In this document: piece after piece, positions 9,176 through 62,578 of the stretch
Numbering within the stretch: the first letter of the stretch is position 1
Layout: the number at the start of each line of letters is the position of its first letter
Assembly (NCBI GenBank): GCA_046725585.1
Contig: JBKOYV010000160.1
Coordinates: forward strand, 2,742-66,741
Reading direction: 5' to 3'
DNA: 64,000 nt
From: Gemmatimonadota bacterium
GTDB lineage: Bacteria > Gemmatimonadota > Gemmatimonadetes > Gemmatimonadales > Gemmatimonadaceae
Translations under genes and position numbers: made by a program
Notes under the pieces: generated by a model
The model's database searches: none
The model's input: the letters and a program-made list of their open reading frames with translations, nothing else
Told to the model about the DNA's origin: nothing

Positions 9176-11575
9176 ATGTTGGTCAACGACATTCGCTTTG
9201 CAGTCCGTGCGCTCGCGCGCAGCCGCACGTTCAGCATCACGGCGCTCGCGACGCTGGCGCTCGGCATCAGTGTCAACACCGCGATCTTCAGCGTGATCGA
9301 CTCGGTGCTGCTCACGCCGCCGCCATTCGCCCAGCCCGACCGGATCGTCACGATCGAAGGCCAGAACAAGGCGCACGGGCTCGAGGGTTCGAGCGTGGCG
9401 TACCCCGACGTGCTCGACTGGCGCGCCGACGCCCACGCCTTCGACGAGATCGCGATCTACCGTAGCCAGACGTTCAACGTCGCCGGCGACGACCGGGCCG
9501 AGCGCGCGAGTGGCGCGCGGGTGTCGGCGAACTACTTCCGGGTGTTCGGCGTCACGCCCCAGCTCGGGCGAACGTTCCTGCCGGAGGAGGAGGCGTTAGG
9601 CAGAGAGCGTGTGATCGTGCTGAGCGACGCATACTGGCGGCGCCGGTTCGCGGCGTCGTCGGCCATCATTGGGCAGCCGCTCCTGATCAACGGGTGGCAG
9701 TACACGGTCGTTGGTGTGATGCCGAAGGGGTTCGCGTACCCGCCGAATGCCGAGGCGTGGTCACCGTTCGTGGCCGACTCGCAGGCGATGCACCGGGGAA
9801 GTCGGTTCATTCGCGGCGTCGGCCGTCTGTCGGCACCCGCCACAGTTCAGCAAGGAGTGGCGGAGCTGAACGCGATCGCGACGCGACTCGAGCAGGCGTA
9901 TCCGGGATCGAACACAGGATGGCGGGTGACGGCCCGCCCGATTCAGGAAGCCATGGAGGGCCGAGCACCGAAGATTCTGTACACGTTCCTCGGCGCGGTG
10001 GGATTCGTGCTGCTCATCGCCTGCGCGAACGTCGCGAATCTGCTCCTGGCCCGTGCGTCGGGTCGGGCGCGTGAGGTGGCAGTGCGTAAGGCACTCGGCG
10101 CATCGGGCTGGCGCCTGATGAGGCAGCTGCTTACCGAGAGTATCATCCTCGCGATGGGCGGCGCGACGCTCGGAGTCTTGCTGTCACTCTGGGAAGTGCG
10201 TCTCCTCAAATCGGTCGTGCCGATTCCGCTTCCGCCCTGGCTGTCGATCGAAGTGAGTGCGCGCGCGCTTGCGTTCACGGTATTGCTGGCGGTCGTGACT
10301 GGCGTGATCGCGGGCATCGTTCCCGCGCTCAAGTTGGCGCGCGGTGGCGTGCACGAGTCATTGGCAACCGGTGTTCGCGGCTCCGGTTCGATGCGACGGA
10401 GTCGGGCACAGCGGACTCTCGTCGTGGCCGAAGTCGCGCTCGCGGTCGTTCTACTCGCAGGCGCCGGGCTCCTGCTCACGAGCCTCGCTCGGCTGCAGGC
10501 GGTGTCACCGGGCTTCTCGGCCGACGGCGTGCTCCTCGCGCGCCTAACGCTGGCCGGTCCGCGATACCAGGACCGTGCGGCGATGGTGCGATTCTACGAC
10601 AATGTGCTGAATCGGCTCCAAGAGACGCCGGGAGTGGAGGCCGCCGGGGCCGCCGGCGCGCTGCCGCTCACCGGATCCGCGAACACGTCGAGCTTTCGCA
10701 TTCCTGGCCGACCCGAGCCTGCCGACGGTCAGGGGCCGACATCGCGGTGGGAGCGGGTGACGCCTGGCTACTTTCGCACGCTCGGGATTCCGCTCAAATC
10801 GGGGCGCGAGTTCGACGCTCGAGACAAAGCGGACGCACCGGCCGTTCTCGTGGTGACGGAGTTGTGGGCGCGAACGTTCTTCCCGGGCGAGCGGAACGTC
10901 GTTGGGAGGCTCGTCGGGCAAGGCGGATCCGACAAACAGTCGACGATCGTGGGCGTCGTGGGCGACGTACGGCACGACGGGCTCGACGAGCCGGTGCAGC
11001 CCACGATGTATTTCCCGTATGCTCAAATGCCGGACGGCGGCATGACGATGGTCGTTCGCTCGTCAGGCGACGCTGCGGCAATGACGAGCGCTGTGCGCGA
11101 CGCGGTCCGCGCCGTGGACGCCACCATTCCTGTGTACGACGTGTCGACAATGCACGAGCAGGTGTCGCGCTCGATCCTGGCGCAGCGATTGAGTGGATCG
11201 ATGATCGGTGTGTTCGCGCTCATGGCCCTCGTACTGGCGACGGTCGGGGTGTACGGATTGATCGCGTACTCGGTGGCTGAGCGCAGGCACGAGATCGGGA
11301 TTCGGCTCGCGCTCGGGGCACGGGGGCAGGATGTACGCCGCCTGGTGGTTGGTCAGGGCGTGCGGTTGACGCTGGCCGGCGTGGCGATCGGACTTGTCGG
11401 CGCGATCCTGGTCGGCCGAGGTATTCGAAGCATGCTGTATGGCGTTACGGCCATACATGTCCCGACGCTCCTGATCGTCTCCGCGGTCCTACTGATCGTG
11501 GCCGTGCTGGCAAGCTGGATTCCGGCGCGTCGCGCGGCACGCACTGACTTGCTTGGAGCATTGCGCGGGGAGTAA
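9176..11575 (+). CDS. ADOP-family permease
   Basis: 799 aa, third tandem paralogue (MLVNDIRFAVRALARSRTF.., ..ACANVANLLLARA.., ..RRHEIGIRLALGA.., ..PARRAARTDLLGALR). Confidence 0.9.
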   Translation: MLVNDIRFAVRALARSRTFSITALATLALGISVNTAIFSVIDSVLLTPPPFAQPDRIVTIEGQNKAHGLEGSSVAYPDVLDWRADAHAFDEIAIYRSQTFNVAGDDRAERASGARVSANYFRVFGVTPQLGRTFLPEEEALGRERVIVLSDAYWRRRFAASSAIIGQPLLINGWQYTVVGVMPKGFAYPPNAEAWSPFVADSQAMHRGSRFIRGVGRLSAPATVQQGVAELNAIATRLEQAYPGSNTGWRVTARPIQEAMEGRAPKILYTFLGAVGFVLLIACANVANLLLARASGRAREVAVRKALGASGWRLMRQLLTESIILAMGGATLGVLLSLWEVRLLKSVVPIPLPPWLSIEVSARALAFTVLLAVVTGVIAGIVPALKLARGGVHESLATGVRGSGSMRRSRAQRTLVVAEVALAVVLLAGAGLLLTSLARLQAVSPGFSADGVLLARLTLAGPRYQDRAAMVRFYDNVLNRLQETPGVEAAGAAGALPLTGSANTSSFRIPGRPEPADGQGPTSRWERVTPGYFRTLGIPLKSGREFDARDKADAPAVLVVTELWARTFFPGERNVVGRLVGQGGSDKQSTIVGVVGDVRHDGLDEPVQPTMYFPYAQMPDGGMTMVVRSSGDAAAMTSAVRDAVRAVDATIPVYDVSTMHEQVSRSILAQRLSGSMIGVFALMALVLATVGVYGLIAYSVAERRHEIGIRLALGARGQDVRRLVVGQGVRLTLAGVAIGLVGAILVGRGIRSMLYGVTAIHVPTLLIVSAVLLIVAVLASWIPARRAARTDLLGALRGE

Positions 11576-12095: not shown

Positions 12096-13472
12096 ATGCC
12101 GAGTCCCGAGTCCCCAGTCCCCAGTCCCCAAATCCTCATTGCCGACGACCAACCGGCCGTGCTCGATGCACTCCGACTCCTTCTGAAGGAAGAAGGCTGG
12201 CGTGTCGTCTCGGCATCGCGACCCGTCGAGATCCTGAAGGCTGTCGAGGCACACACGCTCGACGCGGTCGTCATGGATCTCAACTACGCGCGCGACACGA
12301 CGTCGGGGAAGGAAGGGCTCGACGTTCTCGCGCGCGTGCGCGGGTTCGACGCGACGTTGCCGATCATCGTCATGACCGCGTACGGCAGCGTCCAGGGCGC
12401 CGTCGAGGCCATGCGCCGAGGGGCGGCGGATTACATCGAGAAGCCGTGGGATGACGAGCGGCTCATCGCGATCCTGAGGACACAGATCGAGCTCTCCCAG
12501 GCGCGGCGAGCGAACGAGCGGCTCGCGACCCAGAACAAGCGCCTCGCGCCTAACGTGCCGACGCTCGTCGCGGGCTCGCGCGCGATGCAGCCGGTGCTCG
12601 AGTTGATCGACCGCGTTGCGGCGTCCGACGCGAACGTGCTCATCACCGGTGAGCACGGGACCGGTAAAGAAGTCGTCGCGCAGCGTCTGCATGCCGCGTC
12701 GCACCGCGCCTCGCGGCCGCTCATCACGGTGAACGCCGGCGGGCTCTCCGAAGGCGTCGCCGAGAGCGAGCTGTTCGGTCACATGAAGGGCGCGTTCACC
12801 GACGCGAAGACCGATCGCGTCGGCTGCTTCGAGCTCGCCGACGGCGGCACCCTGTTTCTCGACGAGATCGCGAACATGGCGGCCAAGCTCCAATCGAAGC
12901 TCCTCCGCGTGCTGCAAACGGGCGAGTTCCAGCGCGTGGGGTCGTCGCGCACCCTGCGCGCGGACGTGCGCGTGCTGGCCGCGACCAACGCGGACATCAA
13001 CGCCGAGATCGCGGCCGGCCGCTTTCGCGAAGACCTGTTATACCGACTGAACACCGTGGAGATTCGCCTTCCGCCGCTCCGGGACCGGCGAGAAGACATC
13101 CCTCGTCTGGCCGCTCACTTCCTCGGGGAATACTCGGCACGCTACCGCAAGTCGCTCCACGGGTTCGATGACGACGCCACCGCAGCCATGCACGCGCACG
13201 GCTGGCCGGGCAACGTGCGCGAGCTGCAACATGCGGTCGAGCGCGCGGTGCTCATGGCCCGCACGGGCTCCATCACGAGCGGCGACCTCGGCCTCCGAGC
13301 GGGCGCACCCGGGAGCGCGGCCGACCTCTCGGGCATGACGATGGATGACGCCGAGAAGTACATCATCCAGCAGGCGCTGGCGCGACATGGCGGCAACGTC
13401 GTGCAGGCGGCTGAGGCGTTAGGCATGAGCCGGAGCGCGCTGTACCGGCGGATACAGCAGCATGGGCTCTGA
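12096..13472 (+). CDS. sigma-54-dependent NtrC-family response regulator
   Basis: Receiver domain (ILIADDQPAVL.., DAVVMDLNY), AAA+ sigma-54 interaction domain (GEHGTGKEVVA, ESELFGHMKGAFTDA, RVLAATN, GNVRELQH) and a C-terminal Fis-type HTH (AAEALGMSRSALYRRI). Confidence 0.9.
   Translation: MPSPESPVPSPQILIADDQPAVLDALRLLLKEEGWRVVSASRPVEILKAVEAHTLDAVVMDLNYARDTTSGKEGLDVLARVRGFDATLPIIVMTAYGSVQGAVEAMRRGAADYIEKPWDDERLIAILRTQIELSQARRANERLATQNKRLAPNVPTLVAGSRAMQPVLELIDRVAASDANVLITGEHGTGKEVVAQRLHAASHRASRPLITVNAGGLSEGVAESELFGHMKGAFTDAKTDRVGCFELADGGTLFLDEIANMAAKLQSKLLRVLQTGEFQRVGSSRTLRADVRVLAATNADINAEIAAGRFREDLLYRLNTVEIRLPPLRDRREDIPRLAAHFLGEYSARYRKSLHGFDDDATAAMHAHGWPGNVRELQHAVERAVLMARTGSITSGDLGLRAGAPGSAADLSGMTMDDAEKYIIQQALARHGGNVVQAAEALGMSRSALYRRIQQHGL
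12099..12130. repeat. heptad array CCGAGTC x2, CCCAGTC x2, CCC (inverted copy of the GGGGACT arrays)
   Basis: Starts at codon 2 of the 12096 CDS, where it is translated as PSPESPVPSPQ. It is the reverse complement of the unit used at 11578 and 13483. Confidence 0.85.
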
Positions 13473-16221: not shown

Positions 16222-16333
16222 GTCATTTCGAGCGTAGCTATGTCAGCCCGAGCGAAGCGAGGGATCTTCAGGTTCCCGACAGAGGGCCTCGATCGGGACG
16301 ATGAGGATCCCTCGCCTGACGGCTCGGGATGAC
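16222..16333. repeat. GTCATCC..GGATGAC hairpin repeat (MITE/REP-like), copy a
   Basis: GTCATTTCGAGCG..GAGCGAAGCGAGGGATC..GGATCCCTCGCCTGACGGCTCGGGATGAC. Family members are at 20708, 25293, 27426, 33791 and 62461. Confidence 0.8.
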
Positions 16334-20707: not shown

Positions 20708-20801
20708 GTCATCCTGAGGCGTCCGGCCGAAGGATTCTCATTGTCCCGGCAGAGAGCCCTCGCTCGGGACGACGAACATCCTTCGCTTTGCTCAGGATGA
20801 C
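20708..20801. repeat. GTCATCC..GGATGAC hairpin repeat, copy b
   Basis: GTCATCCTGAGGCGTCCGGCCGAAGGATTCTCAT...CATCCTTCGCTTTGCTCAGGATGAC. Confidence 0.8.
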
Positions 20802-25292: not shown

Positions 25293-25457
25293 GTCATCCC
25301 GGGCAGATTTTGTCATGCCGAGCCGCCATCCCTATACCGCCCGCTTCGCGGGCCCCCGCGCTCGGGATGACAAGCGAGGGATGACACCATCCGGGCCGGG
25401 ACGATGAAGATCCTTCGCTGCGCTCAGGATGACAACCTCCCGGATCCTTGTCATCAC
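25293..25457. repeat. GTCATCC..GGATGAC hairpin repeat, composite copy c
   Basis: GTCATCCCGGG..GTCATGCCGAGCC..GCTCGGGATGAC..GGGATGAC..GCGCTCAGGATGAC..GGATCCTTGTCATCAC, i.e. several half-sites. Confidence 0.7.
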
Positions 25458-27316: not shown

Positions 27317-27620
27317 GCTGGCTGCCTGCTGCGTGCAGCTGCTGGCTGGTAGCCGACGGCCGGCGCGCTACTGCCGCGGGCTTCGAGCTGCTGCCAATAC
27401 CCCAACGAGCCCGGTCAGGACGCCAGTCATCCCGAGCCGTCAGGCGAGGGATCCTCATCGTCCCGACGGAGAGCCCTCGATCGTGAGCCTGAGGATCCCT
27501 CGCTTCGCTCGGGATGACACGACGGCTCGAGATGACACGCGGCTCGTTGCGCTAATAGCAGCAGCTCGCAGCACGCGGCAGCAGCGCGAAGCCGTCGGCT
27601 ACCAGCGGGCAGCTGGCAGC
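27317..27620. repeat. about 300-bp nested palindrome: GCTGCC-rich arms flanking hairpin repeat copy d (27426..27536)
   Basis: The left arm 27317..27411 is approximately the reverse complement of the right arm 27541..27620 (..CTGGTAGCCGACGGC..GCTGCTGCC..AACGAGCC). The core is GTCATCCCGAGCC..GGATCC...GGATCCCTCGCTTCGCTCGGGATGAC. Confidence 0.8.
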
Positions 27621-33790: not shown

Positions 33791-33883
33791 GTCATCCTGA
33801 GGCGTCAGCCGAAGGATCCTCATCGTCCCGGCAGGCTCTCTGCCAGGAACCCGAAGATCCCTCGCCTGACGGCTCGGGATGAC
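33791..33883. repeat. GTCATCC..GGATGAC hairpin repeat, copy e
   Basis: GTCATCCTGAGGCGTCAGCCGAAGGATCCTCATCGTCCCGG...GATCCCTCGCCTGACGGCTCGGGATGAC. Confidence 0.8.
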
Positions 33884-53971: not shown

Positions 53972-54487
53972 TCAGCCGTCCCTCGATGCCACGGGAGATC
54001 CGAGCCGGATCGTTGGCGTCACGGACCGGTACTGCTTTGCCAGGAGACGCCGGAAGAGATGCGCTTTCCTGTGCTTGGCGCTCGACACGAAGACGATCAT
54101 CGTCGATCTTCCCGCCGGAGAAACGCGCAGGTGCACGACGCCGCCCGGCACCGTCAGCGTGCAGGCGTCAGCGGCGCGGGCGGACGGCGCGCACAGCCGG
54201 GAGGCGCACTCCTCGATCACCGTCAGCACCGCGCCCGAGTCCTGACCGATCACCCACCAGCGCGACCGCACGAGCCAGCCTCCAAGCAGCACGACGATGG
54301 CGCCCGCCAGCACGCCTAACGACAAGTGTCCGCCGCCCAGCACGGTGATCGCCGCGGCCACCAGGACGTACAGCGCCGTCAGGAAAAAGACCCAGTCACC
54401 ACGCACGACCGTCGGCTCGCGCCGCGCGAGGACGACCACCGACGCCGCAATCACCAGTGCGACGTACGCGGCCGCCCAGCCGAGCAC
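53972..54487 (-). CDS. hypothetical membrane protein
   Basis: 171 aa with three N-terminal TM helices. The stop is 1 nt before the hydrolase start. Confidence 0.55.
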   Translation of the reverse strand: MLGWAAAYVALVIAASVVVLARREPTVVRGDWVFFLTALYVLVAAAITVLGGGHLSLGVLAGAIVVLLGGWLVRSRWWVIGQDSGAVLTVIEECASRLCAPSARAADACTLTVPGGVVHLRVSPAGRSTMIVFVSSAKHRKAHLFRRLLAKQYRSVTPTIRLGSPVASRDG

Positions 54488-54500
54488 GTCCCGGCTCCGT

Positions 54501-54935
54501 CTACTGGTCGAGAATCGCCTTCAGATTCTCGACCGCGCGAGCGCCTTCCGCCTCGTTCAACCTCTCGACTACCCCGGTTTGCATCTTCGCCAGGAGCGAC
54601 TGCGGCACGTCGTATGTCACATCGACCATCACCTTCACGCTATTGCCCTGTGGCTCGGCACTGTAGGTGAAGGTGCTCTTGATCCCGGTGGTCGTCTTGA
54701 AGCTGAATTTTTTCCCGCTCTCATAGCTCACCGTCTCGGCGCGGCCGGAGAATTCGACGCCCGCCATCACGAACGTCCAATCCCAGGACGTGCCCGCCTT
54801 TTTCGGATCGCCGTTGATGTTTGCGACAGACTTGAGCGGTCCGAGAAAGGCCGGATGGTTTCTCACATCGGCGATGTAGCTCATGATCTGATCGGCCTTG
54901 TTCGTGATGATCGCTGACTTGGCTACATGGGACAT
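54501..54935 (-). CDS. SRPBCC (START/polyketide-cyclase-like) family protein
   Basis: 144 aa. ..ADQIMSYIADVRNHPAFLGPLKSV.. and a beta-rich core. Visibly lower G+C than its neighbours. Confidence 0.65.
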   Translation of the reverse strand: MSHVAKSAIITNKADQIMSYIADVRNHPAFLGPLKSVANINGDPKKAGTSWDWTFVMAGVEFSGRAETVSYESGKKFSFKTTTGIKSTFTYSAEPQGNSVKVMVDVTYDVPQSLLAKMQTGVVERLNEAEGARAVENLKAILDQ

Positions 54936-55754
54936 CGTGCCCTCCGAAAATGCGACGCTGATTCGAGTGAACGCCTGCCGCCGGACGATAATCGCCAGAC
55001 CGTCGGCGCGGCTACTACCTTACTCGAACCTTCTGCGTTGAGCGAGACGTTGCTGGTCCGATTCCCGGTAGCCCGACACTCGGCGCGTGTACACCTCGTG
55101 ACCCCGGCGGTCGTCGAGCGGACGGTCGCGCGTCGCGGCGTGGAAGGAATCCTGACGGCCGGCGAGCGCGCGGCCTTCGACGCGTTCCCCCTCGAGCGAC
55201 GTCGCCGCGACTGGCTCGCCGGCCGTCTGGCAGCCAAGCGTGCCCTGCGCGCGACGTGTCGAGGTCGGGGCGGGACCGTACCGGCATACACCGCGATCGA
55301 GATCCGAAACGACGCCGACGGTGCGCCGGGCTTCGCCATCGATGGAAGCCCCGAGCTCGACGGACGCCTCGACATCTCCATCGCGCACTCAGACGGTGCC
55401 GCGGTCGCCGCGGTCGCGGACAGACTCGCGTCAGGCCCCGTCGGCGTTGACGTGGAGGTCACGAAACCACTGTCGATCGGTCTTGTGCGACGCGTGCTCC
55501 GATCCGCCGAGATCGACCGCCTTGGCGGAAGCTCGACCATTGATCCGACGCCACTCGAGATGTGGACCGCCAAGGAGGCGGCGATGAAGGCGGCGCGACA
55601 TCTGTGTGAAGCGCTCCGCGACGTGGAGCTCTCGTGGACGCGCGCGCGTACGATGCGTGCGCGCATCGTACGCGACGGGTTGCCGGCGCACTCGATCCTC
55701 GTCAGGCATCGGACTGCTGGCCCGTACACCATCGCCCTCGCACTCTATCGATGA
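54927..55754 (+). CDS. 4'-phosphopantetheinyl transferase
   Basis: ..RRRRDWLAGRLAAKRAL.., ..ISIAHSDGAAVAAV.., ..GVDVEV.., ..WTAKEAAMKA... The true start is probably downstream (TTG near 55035/55047), because ATG 54927 overlaps the divergent SRPBCC start. Confidence 0.75.
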   Translation: MGHRALRKCDADSSERLPPDDNRQTVGAATTLLEPSALSETLLVRFPVARHSARVHLVTPAVVERTVARRGVEGILTAGERAAFDAFPLERRRRDWLAGRLAAKRALRATCRGRGGTVPAYTAIEIRNDADGAPGFAIDGSPELDGRLDISIAHSDGAAVAAVADRLASGPVGVDVEVTKPLSIGLVRRVLRSAEIDRLGGSSTIDPTPLEMWTAKEAAMKAARHLCEALRDVELSWTRARTMRARIVRDGLPAHSILVRHRTAGPYTIALALYR

Positions 55755-56725
55755 CACGCGTCGGCATCGACGCCCTGACCTACTACCTGCCCGCGTCTGC
55801 CCCCACCCTTGCGGAGCTCGAGCAGCGTGGGGCGCTGCGCGGACCCGCATCCACGCTTGCCGGGTTCGGCTTCGAGCGGGCGCGCGTGGCCGAGTCGGAG
55901 AGTCACGTGGACATGGCGATGCACGCCGTGCGAACGCTCCTCGACGAGACGAACACCTCGCCCGATGAGATCGATCTCGTCCTCTATGCGGGCGCGCTGA
56001 CGTCCAGCTCCACCATGGAGTGCGCACCTGCCCCCGCGGGGTCGGTGCTGCAGCTGCGGGACCTCATGGACTTCTTCAAGTACCCGGTCTCACAGCTCCA
56101 GAGTGAGCTCGATCTCGTGAACGCATCGGTCGCCGGCATCGACCAGCAAGGGTGTGCCGCGATCTTCTCGAGCGTTCGGCTCGCCCGCGCGACACTGCTC
56201 GCGGAGCCCGACGTTCGCACGGTGCTGTGCGTGAGCGCGGACCGGTTGCCGCACGGTACGTCACGCGAGGTCGTTTACAATCTGGTGTCGGACGGTGCGT
56301 GCGCGATGCTCGTGCGCCGTGACGCGGCGCGAAACCGTCTCGTCGCCACGCACCAGGTGACCAAGGGGGCGTTCTGGGATTCCGGGTCGCTCGAGAACGA
56401 GATCATCGCCGCCTACTTTCCGACCGCACGCACCGTGATCGGGGACACGCTGCGGAAGGCAGGCGTCACCCTGAACGACATCCGGTGGGTGATCCCGCAT
56501 AACGTGTCCCTGCGCAGCTGGGAAATCCTGCTCGGGCTCATCGGGTGTCCCCGCGAAAAGCTGTTCAGCGCCAACATCGGGCGCGTGGGCCACACGATCG
56601 CCGCGGACAACTTCATCAACCTTCGCGACGCGACCGACGCTGGGCTCCTCCACACGGGCGATCTGCTGCTCCTCTTCACGTTCGGCTACGGGCTGAACTG
56701 GAGCTGCATGGTGCTCGAGCACTGA
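55751..56725 (+). CDS. KAS III (FabH)-like condensing enzyme/acyltransferase
   Basis: Trimmed to MTRVGIDALTYYLP.. (ATGA overlap with the PPTase). Active-site Cys ..DQQGCAAIF.., ..VIPHNVS.., ..VGHTIAADN.. (GHT where FabH has GNT). Confidence 0.8.
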   Translation: MTRVGIDALTYYLPASAPTLAELEQRGALRGPASTLAGFGFERARVAESESHVDMAMHAVRTLLDETNTSPDEIDLVLYAGALTSSSTMECAPAPAGSVLQLRDLMDFFKYPVSQLQSELDLVNASVAGIDQQGCAAIFSSVRLARATLLAEPDVRTVLCVSADRLPHGTSREVVYNLVSDGACAMLVRRDAARNRLVATHQVTKGAFWDSGSLENEIIAAYFPTARTVIGDTLRKAGVTLNDIRWVIPHNVSLRSWEILLGLIGCPREKLFSANIGRVGHTIAADNFINLRDATDAGLLHTGDLLLLFTFGYGLNWSCMVLEH

Positions 56726-56734
56726 CCGCCGCGC

Positions 56735-57844
56735 ATGACGAGCTCGCGGGTGCCGGAGCGGCGAACGATCCTCGTGACGGGCGGGACCGGTACGTTAGGC
56801 AGGGAGCTGGTCGCGCGTTTCGCCCGCGCAGATGACGCTTCGGTCGTCGTGCTCGCGCGCGGTACGGCGCATCCGCGTCCCGCCGTGCTGCCGCCAGGTG
56901 TCCGCGCGCTCGCGAGCGACGTGCGGCATGGTTCCACGCTCGGGCTCAGTGCGTCCGACCGCGCGATGCTTCGCGAGAGCGTCACCGACATTGTACACTG
57001 TGCGGCCGACACGACGTTCAACCGCCCGCTCGCCGACGCGCGCGCAACCAACGTGACGGGCACCGAGGCGGTCCTCGCGTTCGCAAAGGAGTGTCGGCGG
57101 CTCCGGCGGCTTGCCTGCTTCAGTACGGTGTACGTCGCGGGGCGCACGACGGGCTGCTTCACGGAGCACGATGTCGGCGGCGCCGACGGGTTCGTGAACA
57201 GCTACGAGCAGTCGAAGGCGGAAATGGAAGCGGTGGTGCGCGACGCGATGCGCCGGCTGCCGATCGCCATCTACCGCCTGAGCACGATCATTGGCGACGC
57301 TCGTACCGGCGAGGTCTCCGGGTTCAACGCGATCCATCACGCCCTGAGACTGCTGTATCAGGGCCTTGCCCCGATGGTGCCGGGTCGGGAAACCGGCCTC
57401 GTGGACCTCATCCCCGTGGATTTCGCTGCCGACGCGAGCCACCATCTCTTCGAGCGCGAGTTCACTGCCGGCGCGACGTATCATCTGTGTGCCGGCGCGG
57501 CGCATTCTGCCACGCTGGGAACCCTGCTGGATGCGACGATGGCGGCGTTCGAGCGATACCGCCCGGCGTGGCGCAAGCGCAGCATCGCCCGGCCCGCAAT
57601 CGTGGAGTTGGAGACGTACGAGCTGTTCGTACGCTCGGTGGAGGAGGCGGGGAATCAGGTGCTGCTGCAGGCGACGCGGGCCGTGCAGGCGTTCGCCTAC
57701 CAGCTCGCGTATCCCAAGGTGTTCGATGCTCGGTACGCCGAGGGCGTGCTCGCGCCGGCAGGCATCGCGGCGCCGAATGTGCTCGACTATTACGACGGGA
57801 TCGTGCGGTGGTGTATCGAAACAAACTGGGGGGCACAGGCATGA
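56735..57844 (+). CDS. NAD(P)-dependent SDR of the thioester-reductase / fatty-acyl reductase type
   Basis: ..ILVTGGTGTLGRELV.. Rossmann motif, catalytic ..NSYEQSK.. (YxxxK), about 370 aa as in stand-alone TR domains. Confidence 0.75.
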   Translation: MTSSRVPERRTILVTGGTGTLGRELVARFARADDASVVVLARGTAHPRPAVLPPGVRALASDVRHGSTLGLSASDRAMLRESVTDIVHCAADTTFNRPLADARATNVTGTEAVLAFAKECRRLRRLACFSTVYVAGRTTGCFTEHDVGGADGFVNSYEQSKAEMEAVVRDAMRRLPIAIYRLSTIIGDARTGEVSGFNAIHHALRLLYQGLAPMVPGRETGLVDLIPVDFAADASHHLFEREFTAGATYHLCAGAAHSATLGTLLDATMAAFERYRPAWRKRSIARPAIVELETYELFVRSVEEAGNQVLLQATRAVQAFAYQLAYPKVFDARYAEGVLAPAGIAAPNVLDYYDGIVRWCIETNWGAQA

Positions 57845-59034
57845 CGGGCTCGTCGCCGAAGGCGCTGCCGACCCCCGCTGAGCTCGAGCGGCAGCTCGCG
57901 CACTTCGTCAACGTCACGCTGCTGGGCGGAGGCAACGCGGTCGGGCGCGACACGCGCCTGTTCGAGGATGGGTACATGAACTCGCTCCGCATCCTCGATC
58001 TGATCGCGATGGTGGAGAAAACGTTAGGCGCGCGCATACCCGACCGCTCGGTTCGCCTCGCGAACTTCCGTACGATCGCCACCATCGTGCAGGTGTTTCA
58101 CCCGGACGCCGGCGTTGTCGCCGCCTCGGCCCCCGATCGGCTGTTCGAGCGCCGCGCTGACCGATCACGCTTTGCCTCGCCAGTCGAACTGCTTCGACAC
58201 CGGGGTGACGTCAGAGTCACCGGTGCCGGTCGCGTCGCCCTGGCTGGCCTCGCGCTCCAGGTCCTCGAGGCGGTCGATGACACCGTCGTGCGTTGGGCGG
58301 AATCCCTCGGCGCTTCCGATCACCGCTACCCGAGCCTGATCGACACGGCCATCCTCCGGCGTGCCGGGCAGACGCCATCCACGATGGTCATCCCGAGCGC
58401 GGATGTCATCCCGAGCGCTGATGACGAGGTTATGCTCGCCCCCGCCGTCTGCTACCACGCCTATCCCGAGTGGGCCGGCAAGGCCATCGGAGACACCCCC
58501 ACGGTCCTCACCGCGCGCGGCCACTGTTACCGCTACGAGGGCGGCCACCACGTCCCGCTGGAACGGCTGTGGGAGTTCACGATGCGCGAGATCATCGTGA
58601 TGGGAACACGCCAGCAGGTCGAAGACGTCCGGCAGTCACTCGTCAGGCAGGTCGCGACTCTCGTCGACACGCTGAAGCTGGACGCCTCGATCGAAACCGC
58701 CACCGACCCGTTCTTCACGGCCGGTGATGAGGGCCGCCGCCTCATGCAGCAGGCCGGCGCGCTCAAGTACGAGCTCCGCCTCGCCGTCGACGCGACGGGC
58801 CGCACGATAGCCGCCGCGTCGTTCAACCATCACCACGACTTCTTCGGCACGCGCTTCGGCATTCGCCTCGCCGACGACACCCCCGCGCACAGCGGATGCG
58901 TCGCGTTCGGGCTCGAGCGGTGGATGCTTGCGCTGCTCGCGCAGCACGGTGTTGAGCGAGACGCGTGGCCTAACGCGGTGCGAGCGTGGCTCGATGAGGC
59001 GCTCCACCGACCGGCTTGGGGATCCGGTGCGTGA
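57841..59034 (+). CDS. carrier-protein domain fused to a class-II aaRS-like (SerRS-type) amino acid:[carrier protein] ligase
   Basis: N-terminal PP-binding-like ..FEDGYMNSLRILDLIAMVEKTLG... C-terminal motif-2-like ..GHCYRYEGGHHVPLERLWEFTMREIIVMG.., motif-3-like ..HSGCVAFGLERWMLALL.. and Cys residues (..APAVCYHAY..) as in Zn-dependent atypical SerRS homologues. No tRNA-binding arm. ATGA overlap with the SDR. Confidence 0.7.
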   Translation: MTGSSPKALPTPAELERQLAHFVNVTLLGGGNAVGRDTRLFEDGYMNSLRILDLIAMVEKTLGARIPDRSVRLANFRTIATIVQVFHPDAGVVAASAPDRLFERRADRSRFASPVELLRHRGDVRVTGAGRVALAGLALQVLEAVDDTVVRWAESLGASDHRYPSLIDTAILRRAGQTPSTMVIPSADVIPSADDEVMLAPAVCYHAYPEWAGKAIGDTPTVLTARGHCYRYEGGHHVPLERLWEFTMREIIVMGTRQQVEDVRQSLVRQVATLVDTLKLDASIETATDPFFTAGDEGRRLMQQAGALKYELRLAVDATGRTIAAASFNHHHDFFGTRFGIRLADDTPAHSGCVAFGLERWMLALLAQHGVERDAWPNAVRAWLDEALHRPAWGSGA

Positions 59035-59918
59035 CTCGGCTGCACAACCGCACGCGCACGTCGGAGTCCATCCCGCGAAAGCTGCTCCGCCAGGGCAAGC
59101 TGCATCTCCTCCCCATCTACGCGCTCATGCGCACCAGCGACCTCGCGCGCGAAGGCATTGAGAACTCCGGCAGCTATCGATTCGCGGACCATGTCTATCG
59201 TAACGAGCCCAGTGGCCGCTTCGGCATCGGCCGCGCGCTCGATGCGGTGTTGCTGCGCATGCGCGGCGCCCGGTCCATGCGCAACCGCTTCCACCACACC
59301 CAGCGCGAAATCCTCGCTGCAGCCCGGACGCTCGAGTCGCGCAGCGCCACCGACCCGGTTGCGGCCAGCGCACCGTTTCGCGTACTGTCGATCCCGAGCG
59401 GTATCGCGCGTGACCTCGTCCTCGCTGCCCGGGCCGTCGAGCGGGAGCTCCCGGGGGTGTACGCGCGCAGCACATTTTTCGGCGTGGACCTCGACCCCGT
59501 GCCGCTCGAGCTTTCGCGTGACCTCGCGGGACGGGACGACCACTACTTCTTCACCCGTGGCGACGCCCTCGATCCGGCGTCCTTCCCCTCGGAGCTCGAC
59601 ATCATCGTCTCCACGGGACTCGGAGAATTCCTGAGCGATGACCTGCTCGTGCAGTTCTACACGAACTGTCGCAATCGGCTTCGGCCGGGCGGCACCTTCG
59701 TCACATCCGCCATGCAACCCGACCGCGTCGCGGACTACCTGATGCGTCAACTCGCGGAGCTTCATGCGCACTACCGCCGCGGCGATGAGATCATTCGATG
59801 GCTGCACGCGGCCGGCTTCCACGAGGTGTCGACACGCCAGGACGAGGTGGGCCTGCAGACGCTCGTCGTCGCGCGGCGTGTCGAGCGCCGGAGTGCCCCC
59901 CGCGGCCAGGAGGCGTGA
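59016..59918 (+). CDS. class I SAM-dependent methyltransferase
   Basis: ..FRVLSIPSGIARDL.., ..GVDLDP.., ..DIIVSTGLGEFLSD.., ..LRPGGTFVTS... Start is TTG 59016 or GTG 59031 (GTGA overlap). Confidence 0.65.
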   Translation: MGIRCVTRLHNRTRTSESIPRKLLRQGKLHLLPIYALMRTSDLAREGIENSGSYRFADHVYRNEPSGRFGIGRALDAVLLRMRGARSMRNRFHHTQREILAAARTLESRSATDPVAASAPFRVLSIPSGIARDLVLAARAVERELPGVYARSTFFGVDLDPVPLELSRDLAGRDDHYFFTRGDALDPASFPSELDIIVSTGLGEFLSDDLLVQFYTNCRNRLRPGGTFVTSAMQPDRVADYLMRQLAELHAHYRRGDEIIRWLHAAGFHEVSTRQDEVGLQTLVVARRVERRSAPRGQEA

Positions 59919-59921
59919 CAA

Positions 59922-60653
59922 GTGATCTACGAATCCCACCTGCGCGCCACCGAGGAAAACGCGTGGCCCCTCGACTCCTCCATCGCGTGGGATGCGATCG
60001 ACCTCGACGTCGCGCGCAGCGAGCGCGATCTACACCAGGCACTGCACGACGCGGCGCTCATCGAAGGGTACCTGCCGGTGTACGCCGCGCGGCTCATGCA
60101 GCTCCTCTGGGACGACGTCGATGCGACCGCCGTGCTCAGCATGGAGCTCTACGAGGGACTCAAGCACTTCACCGCGCTCGCCCGGTACCTCGACCGCGTG
60201 GGCTATCAACGCGAGGAGGTCTCCGAGGCGACGCTCGTGGCCGCGCGAGCGCGCGCGCTCGCGATCGCGTACGACAGGGCCGACCTCATCGCGCACCTCA
60301 CGAACTTCATGTGCTCGGAGCTCTTCGCCGCGTACTTCTTCCTGCGTATTGCCCGCCGCACTAACGAGCCGGTGCTGCGAGAGCTGTTAGGCTACATGTC
60401 GCGCGATGAGTTCCGTCACAGCGCAAGCGCCGGCGACGTCCTCAAGAAGCGCATCGATCGCGATCCCGGGATCGCTGCCCAGGTCCTCGCGGCCGCCGAG
60501 CGGTTTCGCCACTATGGGAGCGACGTCGTTCAGGTCCCCGTCGCCGAGGAGAACGACTTCGAGGCGATCATGGCCATGAACCGAAAGGTCCGCCTGCTGT
60601 GCGGCCTCGCGCCGACCGAGCATCTCAAGGAGTCCGTCCCCGGTGGAGATTAG
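59922..60653 (+). CDS. ferritin-like / acyl-ACP-desaturase-like putative diiron protein
   Basis: 243 aa, all-helical. ..MELYEGLKHF.. and ..SRDEFRHS.. (DExRH-type ligand motif). Confidence 0.55.
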   Translation: MIYESHLRATEENAWPLDSSIAWDAIDLDVARSERDLHQALHDAALIEGYLPVYAARLMQLLWDDVDATAVLSMELYEGLKHFTALARYLDRVGYQREEVSEATLVAARARALAIAYDRADLIAHLTNFMCSELFAAYFFLRIARRTNEPVLRELLGYMSRDEFRHSASAGDVLKKRIDRDPGIAAQVLAAAERFRHYGSDVVQVPVAEENDFEAIMAMNRKVRLLCGLAPTEHLKESVPGGD

Positions 60654-61497
60654 CGAAAACGATCTCTGGATCCTCAGCTACTACCGCGAGTCGGAGCTCG
60701 CGGGAAGTCTCGTCATGGGCCGCCTCGCGCGGGAAACGGACGACGACGACCTGCGTGTGCACCTCACCGAGCATTGCGCGGAAGAGGCCCACCACGCGTG
60801 GCTGTGGACGGAGACGATCCTCAAGGTGGGCGGTACCCCGAAGCGCGTGGCCGAGACGTACCAGACGCGCTACTACGCCGAGATCGGGATGCCGGCGAGC
60901 CTGCTCGAGATTCTTACACTCACACAAGTTTTCGAGCGGCGCGTAATACGGCATTTCCGCGCCCACCTCAAGTGGCCTGACGTGCACCCCGCGGTGGCCG
61001 AAACGCTCCGCCGCATGATCGAGGACGAGGTCGGCCACATCAGCTGGGTAAAGGACCGCCTCGATCGATACGCGGCCGAGAAGGGGGAAGCGATCGTGGC
61101 CGAAACGATGCGCCGCTTCACCGAAGTGGATGAACGCGTCTACGAAGCGGCGATGCGCTACCGGGACAACGCACGCGAGCTGCTCGACCCCGCGCTCCGT
61201 GGGAACGGACAGGCGCGCCCCCAGCCGACGTCGATCACGGCACCGTCGGCCTCACGCGCGACCACGAGCAATGCCGAGCTCCGCCACCTCGTGGCGAAGT
61301 CGCTCGGCGTGAACGACGACATCGTGCTCGATACGTCGTCGCTCCGCGACCTGGGTGTCAACTCGCTCGACCTCGTGGTGCTCGTGATGTCGATCGAGGA
61401 GCATTTCCACGTCGAGTTCGAGGCGAGCGACCTGGAGCGACTGCGGACGTTCGCCGACCTGGCGCGCCGCGTGACCGAGCTGACCGCGGTTCGTTAG
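60643..61497 (+). CDS. diiron four-helix-bundle (ferritin-like) oxygenase domain fused to a C-terminal acyl-carrier domain
   Basis: E..ExxH x2 ligand pattern (..YRESELAG.., ..CAEEAHH.., ..VFERRV.., ..IEDEVGH..). A linker is followed by ..LRDLGVNSLDLVVLVMSIEEHF.. (PP-binding). The stop TAG lies inside a CGTTAGGC copy. Confidence 0.7.
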   Translation: MEISENDLWILSYYRESELAGSLVMGRLARETDDDDLRVHLTEHCAEEAHHAWLWTETILKVGGTPKRVAETYQTRYYAEIGMPASLLEILTLTQVFERRVIRHFRAHLKWPDVHPAVAETLRRMIEDEVGHISWVKDRLDRYAAEKGEAIVAETMRRFTEVDERVYEAAMRYRDNARELLDPALRGNGQARPQPTSITAPSASRATTSNAELRHLVAKSLGVNDDIVLDTSSLRDLGVNSLDLVVLVMSIEEHFHVEFEASDLERLRTFADLARRVTELTAVR

Positions 61498-62373: not shown

Positions 62374-62578
62374 GGGAGACGGGAAGCGGGAGGCGGGAGG
62401 CGGGAAGCGAAGGCGGGAACCGCGAACGGGGAACCGGGAGCCGTGCTGCTCTACCGGGAACCTGAGGATCCTTCGCTTCGCTCAGGATGACTAAGCCTGT
62501 CATTCCGAGCGCAGCGAGGAATCCTCATTCTCCTGGTAGAGGGCTCCTGTTCCCGGTTCCCCGTTCCCGGTTCCCGCC
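62374..62578. repeat. about 200-bp nested palindrome: GGGAAGC/GGGAACC heptad arms around two back-to-back hairpin-repeat half-sites (copy f, 62461..62528)
   Basis: The left arm GGGAGAC GGGAAGC GGGAGGC GGGAGGC GGGAAGC ..GGCGGGAACCGCGAACGGGGAACCGGGAG pairs with the right arm CTCCTGTTCCCGGTTCCCCGTTCCCGGTTCCCGCC. The core is ..GAGGATCCTTCGCTTCGCTCAGGATGAC-TAAGCCT-GTCATTCCGAGCGCAGCGAGGAATCCTC... Confidence 0.8.

Follow-up and report, generated by a model that had tools for sequence, protein, structure and literature searches.

The aa:CP ligases, which join an amino acid to a carrier protein, were discovered in 2010 as relatives of tRNA synthetases that load carrier proteins. Three of them, Bll0957 and Bll6282 from Bradyrhizobium and Atu2573 from Agrobacterium, are said to have been described by Mocibob et al. 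in 2010 and 2013 together with separate carriers (PDB 3mey and 4h2s). The family is zinc-dependent and forms dimers, and according to a 2022 review the biological role of its reaction is still unknown (PMC9437257). Here we analyzed a gene from a 64,000-nucleotide stretch of the Gemmatimonadota contig JBKOYV010000160.1 (the window, to which all coordinates refer unless a locus is named), in which a carrier domain and a ligase-like core are encoded in one polypeptide. We place the probability at about 75% that in this gene an aminoacyl carrier domain has been naturally fused with its cognate zinc-dependent aa:CP ligase core, the latter derived from methanogen-type seryl-tRNA synthetase (SerRS). 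An initial annotation made from the DNA letters had pointed to such a fusion and had noted that described aa:CP ligases act in trans on separate carriers, which agrees with the accessible literature. Our own literature search returned no account of an aa:CP ligase fusion, of a gene cluster containing a SerRS-like enzyme, or of the operon described below, although this is weak evidence because most subscription journals lay outside its scope.

Compared with the Bll0957-type ligases, the window protein shares the truncated SerRS-like core, motifs 2 and 3, the Cys/Glu/Cys site as judged by alignment, the type of carrier, and the fact that a carrier is co-encoded. It differs in carrying this carrier covalently on the ligase N-terminus, in its sequence (~28% identity), in lacking a core segment marked by S-F-P-x-x-L, and in a genomic context that is different and conserved, with a β-ketoacyl-ACP synthase III (KAS III)-like enzyme, a reductase, a methyltransferase, and two diiron proteins. 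Methanogen-type SerRS (2cim, 3w3s) has the same catalytic core fold and zinc site, while in the window protein the carrier occupies the place of the tRNA-binding N-terminal domain. The carrier itself is most like the small aminoacyl carriers of the pairs PltL-PltF, PigG-PigI, and DltC-DltA, sharing an N-S dipeptide with PltL, whereas loaders of the PltF/PigI/DltA type are ANL adenylating enzymes acting in trans. Adenylation-thiolation (A-T) didomains of nonribosomal peptide synthetases (NRPS) and A-T-reductase (A-T-R) modules such as HamD/PvfC and MxcG have the same predicted chemistry, in which an amino acid passes through aminoacyl-AMP to a tethered thioester with a reductase acting next. 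In contrast to these, the activating domain of the window protein has a class II aminoacyl-tRNA synthetase (aaRS) fold instead of an ANL fold, the carrier is N-terminal and not C-terminal, and the reductase is a separate gene; no Pfam match to AMP-binding (PF00501) was found in the protein at E values up to 0.1. An A-domain analogue of independent origin, which the initial annotation had proposed for this gene, is a property of the whole aa:CP ligase family, and only the covalent fusion is new.

Sequence searches disclosed Bll0957 as the closest solved relative of the ligase core (4e-32), followed by methanogen-type SerRS (1.5e-15). A family profile built from 95 diverse ligase relatives, which are only ~30% identical on average, raised both matches in the PDB, with 5e-76 for Bll0957 over chain residues 28-330 and 9e-63 for methanogen-type SerRS. 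Since the profile spans residues 28-330 of Bll0957, the N-terminal part of the core (aa ~98-195), which is invisible to single-sequence searches, is homologous as well. The structure comparison with SerRS and aa:CP ligases that had been suggested at the outset gave the same order. Using an AlphaFold2 (AF2) model built from a 65-sequence alignment (mean predicted local distance difference test score, pLDDT, 80.5; predicted TM score, pTM, 0.71; core outside one loop >90), the top PDB entries in Foldseek were those of the Bll0957 Gly:CP ligase (4h2w_B, E 3.9e-22, TM score by target 0.75, 303 columns), and Methanosarcina SerRS came next with E ~1e-20. Among curated models, the best in NCBIfam was amino acid--[ACP] ligase NF005479 (173 bits, aa 196-384), and Pfam tRNA-synt_2b (PF00587) matched aa 204-369 with 37 bits against a cut-off of 29.3.

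The alignment with Bll0957 confirmed the class II motif 2- and motif 3-like segments that had been noticed in the DNA, and all the peptides quoted at that time are present in the open reading frame (ORF). CYRYE of motif 2 aligns with CFRRE of Bll0957, and AFGLER of motif 3 aligns with GCVAFGMDR; Arg-231 and Glu-233 in the former, and Cys-353, Gly-357, and Arg-360 in the latter, are invariant in the 95 relatives. The two cysteines proposed as candidate zinc ligands, in AVCYH (Cys-204) and HSGCVAF (Cys-353), align with cysteines of Bll0957, and Cys-204 is likewise invariant across the relatives. A third zinc ligand by alignment had not been named before, Glu-250 (FTMRE), which corresponds to the Glu of FRMRE in Bll0957 and is kept in at least 90% of the relatives. 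We take this Cys/Glu/Cys set to be the zinc ligands from the numbering reportedly given by Mocibob 2010 (Cys-131, Glu-176, and Cys-279), which fits 3mey_A with a 20-residue offset.

The absence of a tRNA-binding arm, also put forward in the initial annotation, is borne out by the AF2 model and the profile matches, in which a tRNA-binding domain is absent from the window protein and the 90-aa carrier is the sole extra domain. Only this carrier precedes the ligase core, which begins ~10 residues past it. An unusual SerRS that still charges tRNA would be in keeping with the tRNA-synt_2b match, with scores of 85-106 bits to the NCBIfam serS models (cut-offs 490-611), and with the name 'seryl-tRNA synthetase' in JGI records. 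However, the N-terminus is a carrier in place of a tRNA-binding domain, the nearest matches belong to the tRNA-inactive Bll0957 family, and the gene stands in a biosynthetic operon; we give this explanation next to no weight.

For the N-terminal ~90 residues, the proposed PP-binding identity is supported by Pfam, by matches of carrier profiles, and by a four-helix AF2 model. A profile of this region from 10 fused relatives matched small stand-alone type II carriers, namely 6cxt_A (2e-12), the prolyl carrier PltL (8e-10), PigG, and CcbZ, and also 4h2s_C, the 'Aminoacyl carrier protein 1' that is the partner of Bll0957 (7e-6). Pfam PP-binding, at E values up to 0.1, matched nine of 10 diverse fused relatives. 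The modeled helices cover residues 12-27, 48-62, 68-71, and 79-86, which places Ser-48, the serine that had been singled out in an NSL context, as the first residue of helix II. Ser-48 is invariant in every alignment of fused homologues, and its counterpart in 6cxt_A and PltL is the serine of the D-S/N-S dipeptide. The preceding residue is Asn in the window protein and Asn, Thr, or Asp among its relatives, the more distant fused ones having the canonical D-S; given that PltL also has N-S (L-N-S), the NSL context is a variant rather than a defect. Within the protein, the carrier ranks with the best-conserved regions (..RLFEDGYMNSLRILDLIAxVEK..). These domain identities, and the intactness of the catalytic and attachment residues, are computed results.

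To evaluate the fusion itself, we compared the gene with its homologues in a search of 5.8 billion proteins. The best 120 clusters all contain both halves, with lengths of 372-451 aa and 60-85% identity, and query coverage is at least 94% in all but one (minimum 89%, mostly 96-100%). Because these are the best matches listed, the full architecture is present in at least 120 clusters; their sources are JGI, ENA, NCBI, and Logan assemblies, and some JGI records are auto-named 'seryl-tRNA synthetase/acyl carrier protein'. In a species-representative genome set, the fused form is present at 13 Gemmatimonadota loci from metagenome-assembled genomes, in a single reading frame at 12 of them. The exception is the Gemmatimonadaceae locus L013, from CAVUFA/CAWHHI-type 'MFD' assemblies, where the gene changes frame several times and is interrupted by an in-frame stop. 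Against three ~80%-identical orthologues, the ratio of nonsynonymous to synonymous substitution rates (dN/dS) was 0.15-0.19 in the carrier, and the N-terminal and C-terminal parts of the core gave 0.15-0.20 and 0.13-0.15, respectively. Both halves are thus under purifying selection, and the carrier-ligase fusion is genuine, not an artefact.

The opposite explanation, that an assembly or frameshift artefact joined two neighboring genes, had been raised together with the fusion. It could draw on the Acidobacteriota loci described below, where the parts are truly separate genes in different frames, and on L013, whose frame changes and in-frame stop could stem from sequencing error or decay. The best 120 clusters are nevertheless one ORF each in material from independent sources, 12 Gemmatimonadota loci read through in a single frame, and in the window the linker is in frame and the gene has no internal stop; the chance of an artefact is close to nil. 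The linker varies in both sequence and length among the fused homologues (alignment A1). We also considered whether all ligase relatives of ~400 aa are carrier fusions, and rejected this. An unrelated N-terminal domain of ~75 aa is borne by 87 of the 95 relatives; Pfam PP-binding was detected in three of the 95, and hhalign of the ~75-aa domain to the carrier profile gave a probability of 1.6%. This domain is unannotated, having no Pfam match, and was seen in P0128, P0131, P0134, P0143, and others. P0128 is a ligase with the ~75-aa domain that lies in the same operon type with a separate carrier gene present.

The origin of the fusion, the most telling outcome of the analysis, can be read from loci at which the two parts are unfused. 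In Acidobacteriota, this is the case at four loci, L053, L058, and L074 of Ca. Angelobacter and L061 of Bryobacteraceae, where different frames encode the carrier-like and the ligase-like part. In L053, the TGA that closes the carrier ORF (9947-10246 of that locus) shares bases with the start ATG of the ligase ORF (10243-11067), which encodes 274 aa. In L083 and L084, an 89-aa carrier gene stands directly upstream of a 385-aa ligase gene, and the L083 ligase bears an unrelated 75-aa N-terminal domain. The neighbors of all the unfused pairs are those of the window gene, with the same gene set and order except that the methyltransferase comes last in Ca. Angelobacter. The unfused carriers and ligases, which are separate, translationally coupled genes, are 40-46% and 41-49% identical to the window protein, respectively. 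Because separate adjacent genes occupy the same operon, the Gemmatimonadota protein is a fused version of a carrier-ligase cognate pair, and its origin from adjacent genes is, like the conservation of the fusion, a computed result. Together, the fused and unfused versions pair one carrier with one ligase in the manner of a Rosetta stone. Judged from these sequences, this comparison provides the strongest argument at hand for the fused carrier likely being the ligase's own acceptor.

Several observations weigh against the fused carrier and ligase forming a working cognate pair. The Pfam PP-binding score of the carrier within the whole protein is only marginal (21.0 bits over aa 33-84, with the cut-off at 20.8; 24.0 bits for the isolated domain). 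The equivalog cut-off of NF005479, 357 bits, is not reached, with profile positions 128-315 of 318 aligned; on these scores, the window protein belongs to a divergent subfamily of aa:CP ligases and is not an equivalog. The linker of ~10 residues may be short for Ser-48 to reach the pantetheine entrance of its own chain, a second carrier that might in principle accept the amino acid is encoded in the operon, and the core lacks the S-F-P-x-x-L segment at a spot where a repeat remnant is found.

The second carrier, the C-terminal acyl carrier protein (ACP) of the diiron protein Fe2, leads to an alternative in which the ligase has an acceptor other than the fused carrier. This enzyme would then charge the Fe2 ACP, free CoA, or another thiol, while some other intermediate, such as one destined for the KAS III-like enzyme or the reductase, would reside on the N-terminal carrier. 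Two carrier domains are indeed encoded in the operon, and characterized aa:CP ligases also aminoacylate free CoA and cysteine (PMC5370406). Set against this, the unfused versions place a small, translationally coupled carrier gene immediately upstream of the ligase, and the second carrier is fused or adjacent to Fe2 and not to the ligase. Moreover, the fused carrier is like aminoacyl/peptidyl carriers, including the Bll0957 partner, whereas the second carrier is like the ACPs of fatty acid synthesis (FAS). We therefore consider it improbable that the ligase serves a different acceptor, and favor the fused carrier as its cognate partner.

The missing part of the core comprises S-F-P-x-x-L and ~25 further residues between motif 1 and the Cys strand. 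It is kept in Bll0957 (SFPNLLG...), in the family consensus, in the Acidobacteriota ligases, and in L001, L004, L012, and L013, and is kept partly in L005. Besides the window protein, it is missing in L002, L003, L006, and in a second, distant fused lineage (L007-L011). The loss in two separate fused lineages is accompanied by no sign of relaxed selection elsewhere in the protein (segment site at window 58366-58440, aa 176-200). At this place, the window gene carries in frame a remnant of a palindromic repeat resembling repetitive extragenic palindromic (REP) elements or miniature inverted-repeat transposable elements (MITE), and the encoded residues fall in a predicted disordered surface loop with a pLDDT of ~50. 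Two copies of GTCATCCCGAGCG in tandem encode the peptide VIPSADVIPSADD; GTCATCCCGAGCG, which forms the terminal repeat of a palindromic element of ~92 bp, occurs 12 times in the window where 0.41 occurrences are expected. At the same insertion site, the element is complete and in frame in L003 and present as partial copies in L002 and L006, and it is translated in several frames in many database homologues (..VIPSEARD.., ..HPERSEGP.., ..SLRSLGMT..). The GC-rich ~92-bp element (GTCATCCCGAGCG...CGCTCGGGATGAC) is also seen elsewhere in the window, at 16242-16333, 27426-27518, 25359-25433, 62479-62511, 20761-20773, and 33871-33883.

This insertion and loss could mean that the window copy is a decaying or dead ligase that survives as a carrier or scaffold. 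A segment held by Bll0957 and many relatives is gone, a repeat remnant sits at that very spot, and the loop there is of low confidence. The ORF, however, is intact with all catalytic and zinc residues kept, the C-terminal core retains its dN/dS of 0.13-0.15 within the segment-less clade, the distant fused lineage L007-L011 lacks the segment as well, and the remaining core is modeled with pLDDT >90. With dN/dS this low, the enzyme is probably still in use despite the lost segment. A dead ligase is very unlikely on this evidence, and we retain the reading of an active carrier-ligase fusion.

Table 1. Features of the carrier-ligase gene and of its operon, in window coordinates.
Feature	Coordinates	Strand	Details
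Carrier-ligase gene	57841..59034	+	one 397-aa ORF
Carrier (PP-binding) domain	57868..58104	+	aa ~10-88; Pfam PF00550, profile matches, AF2 secondary structure
Ser48 codon (tcg)	57982..57984	+	predicted phosphopantetheine attachment site in ..GYMNSLRILDL..
Linker, carrier to ligase core	58105..58131	+	aa ~89-97; pLDDT <50 at residues 92-96
Class II aaRS-like ligase core	58132..59010	+	aa ~98-390; homologous to Bll0957 over whole length
REP/MITE-like palindromic repeat remnant VIPSADVIPSADD	58387..58425	+	in frame; predicted disordered surface loop, aa 176-196
Cys204 codon	58450..58452	+	first zinc ligand by homology; aligns with Cys of PAACYPVYP in Bll0957
Motif 2 region (GHCYRYE...LWEFTMREIIVMG)	58519..58605	+	R231, E233, zinc ligand E250 (58588-58590)
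Motif 3 region (GCVAFGLERWM)	58894..58926	+	zinc ligand Cys353 (58897-58899), Arg360
171-aa hydrophobic protein	53972..54487	-	travels with SRPBCC gene; tblastn
SRPBCC (Polyketide_cyc2) protein	54501..54935	-	divergently transcribed; PF10604 35.8 bits
Sfp-type 4'-phosphopantetheinyl transferase (PPTase)	54927..55754	+	Pfam ACPS 50 bits, plus 4PPT_N
KAS III (FabH)-like enzyme	55748..56725	+	ACP_syn_III_C 72.6 bits; Cys-His-His triad
Stand-alone thioester reductase (short-chain dehydrogenase/reductase, NAD_binding_4)	56735..57844	+	PF07993 142 bits
S-adenosylmethionine-dependent methyltransferase (Methyltransf_20)	59016..59918	+	PF12147 38.9 bits; start possibly GTG 59031, overlapping ligase stop
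Ferritin-like diiron protein Fe1	59922..60653	+	distantly acyl-ACP desaturase-like
Fe2, ferritin-like/AurF-like diiron protein with C-terminal FAS-type ACP	60643..61497	+	ACP aa 212-277, ..DLGVNSLDLV..

The genes around the fusion (Table 1) are closely packed. The ligase gene starts with an ATG that shares bases with the stop codon of the reductase gene upstream (ATGA, 57841-57844), and the downstream methyltransferase gene has a GTG or TTG start at, or just before, the ligase-gene stop. With such short gene overlaps, the stretch from 54927 to 61497 looks like one translationally coupled operon. A tblastn analysis revealed that the KAS III-like enzyme, the reductase, the methyltransferase, Fe1, and Fe2 are present at every locus with a fused or adjacent carrier-ligase pair. 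At other ligase loci, tblastn with the window neighbors detected none of these five genes (0 of 62). This operon conservation is again computed. On the short contigs of P0138 and P0140, a neighboring reductase and methyltransferase were seen. The PPTase heads the operon in the window clade and lies upstream in L002, L003, L005, L006, and L083. The SRPBCC gene and the gene for the 171-aa protein adjoin the cassette in eight loci (L001, L004-L007, L012, L013, and L083), and in L007 both are on the same strand as the operon, directly upstream of the KAS III gene; they are probably accessory members of the system.

Comparison of the KAS III-like enzyme with FabH (2ebd) showed that the Cys (QQGCAA) and one His (IPHNVS) are kept, while a second His (VGHTIAA) replaces the catalytic Asn of FabH. 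The resulting Cys-His-His triad is unusual for the fold. ChlB3 was among the PDB matches of this protein; KAS III-like acyltransferases such as ChlB3 shuttle acyl groups between carriers. The reductase scored 99.5 bits with the NRPS-type thioester-reductase domain TIGR01746, below the cut-off of 213.35. A profile of Fe1 orthologues matched DesA2 (3.9e-7) and R2lox (2.7e-5) in the PDB. Fe2, in which E/ExxH/E/ExxH motifs are present, is a minimal protein of the ferritin-like type, with Pfam scores of 52 bits for PP-binding, 25.9 for Ferritin, and 22.8 for AurF (PF11583, cut-off 29.6). Its closest curated family is the AurF N-oxygenase, matched by five of eight orthologues with a best value of 3e-7. 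The carrier of Fe2 resembles FAS ACPs, and the ligase-fused carrier resembles peptidyl carrier proteins (PCP) and aminoacyl carriers. The joining of Fe2 and its ACP constitutes a second gene fusion in the operon, and the two are separate in L053 (11773-12327, with an 83-aa ACP gene at 12324-12575 of that locus). Both operon carriers have Asn in place of the canonical Asp before the serine, YMNSL at 57979-57984 and GVNSL at ~61336-61341. Co-variation of this N-for-D change between the two carriers, which would point to a shared PPTase, was ruled out, as the positions are independent across orthologues: in L008, one carrier reads N-S and the other D-S, and in L005 and L007 the two read T-S and D-S.

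We infer from this gene content how the pathway might run, including the loading of the carrier by its fused ligase, in cis or in trans, the choice of amino acid, the order of the downstream steps, and the kind of product. The Sfp-type PPTase of the operon would place phosphopantetheine on Ser-48, and the ligase core would use ATP to convert a small amino acid to its aminoacyl-adenylate. The amino acid would then be moved to the tethered thiol, on the same chain or across a homodimer, to give a covalent aminoacyl thioester. The KAS III-like enzyme is a candidate consumer of this thioester, which it may condense as an aminoacyl primer with an acyl or malonyl group borne by the second ACP; alternatively, it may shuttle the aminoacyl group between carriers. 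The diiron enzymes could oxidize the tethered intermediate, the methyltransferase could modify it, and the stand-alone reductase would release an aldehyde or alcohol.

The nearest precedent that we documented for such a scheme is the ham/pvf system, in which an AurF-like N-oxygenase oxidizes valine tethered on an A-T-R NRPS, the reductase domain releases the product, and a polyketide-cyclase-like protein is encoded in the cluster (PMC11659414). The window operon has a thioester reductase-like protein, an SRPBCC protein, and the AurF-like Fe2, whose AurF match is subthreshold, and we claim no family membership on this likeness. We propose, as a speculative and rather unlikely extension, that pvf/ham-type signal biosynthesis has a non-NRPS counterpart in this operon, comprising a self-loading, aaRS-derived A-T equivalent, diiron oxidation, possible KAS III extension or shuttling to the second ACP, methylation, and aldehyde release. 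If true, this would give aa:CP ligases a first physiological role and would add a new class of small molecules from uncultured Gemmatimonadota and Acidobacteriota.

The advance presented here is incremental: the covalent fusion and the conserved surrounding operon are new, while the parts were already known and the fusion is of a kind commonplace in evolution. To a specialist, the joining of partner proteins would not be very surprising. Its value is that the activation and carrier functions joined in NRPS A-T didomains appear to have been joined a second time, here from a class II synthetase fold. In addition, the conserved operon of ~6.6 kb names the enzymes that would be expected to consume the aminoacyl thioester, and offers a compact system in which to approach the role of aa:CP ligases.

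A distant fused ligase, P0137 (motif LIDS; JGI 3300050046), lies in a different cluster with two KAS III-like genes and a PPTase, so that the association of a carrier-ligase with KAS III-like enzymes recurs. The order of genes in this cluster is TENA_THI-4 (haem-oxygenase-like), an unannotated ORF, an AMP-binding enzyme, a ketoreductase, an 87-aa ORF, the PPTase, KAS III, the carrier-ligase, a protein of unknown type, and a KAS III-like enzyme.

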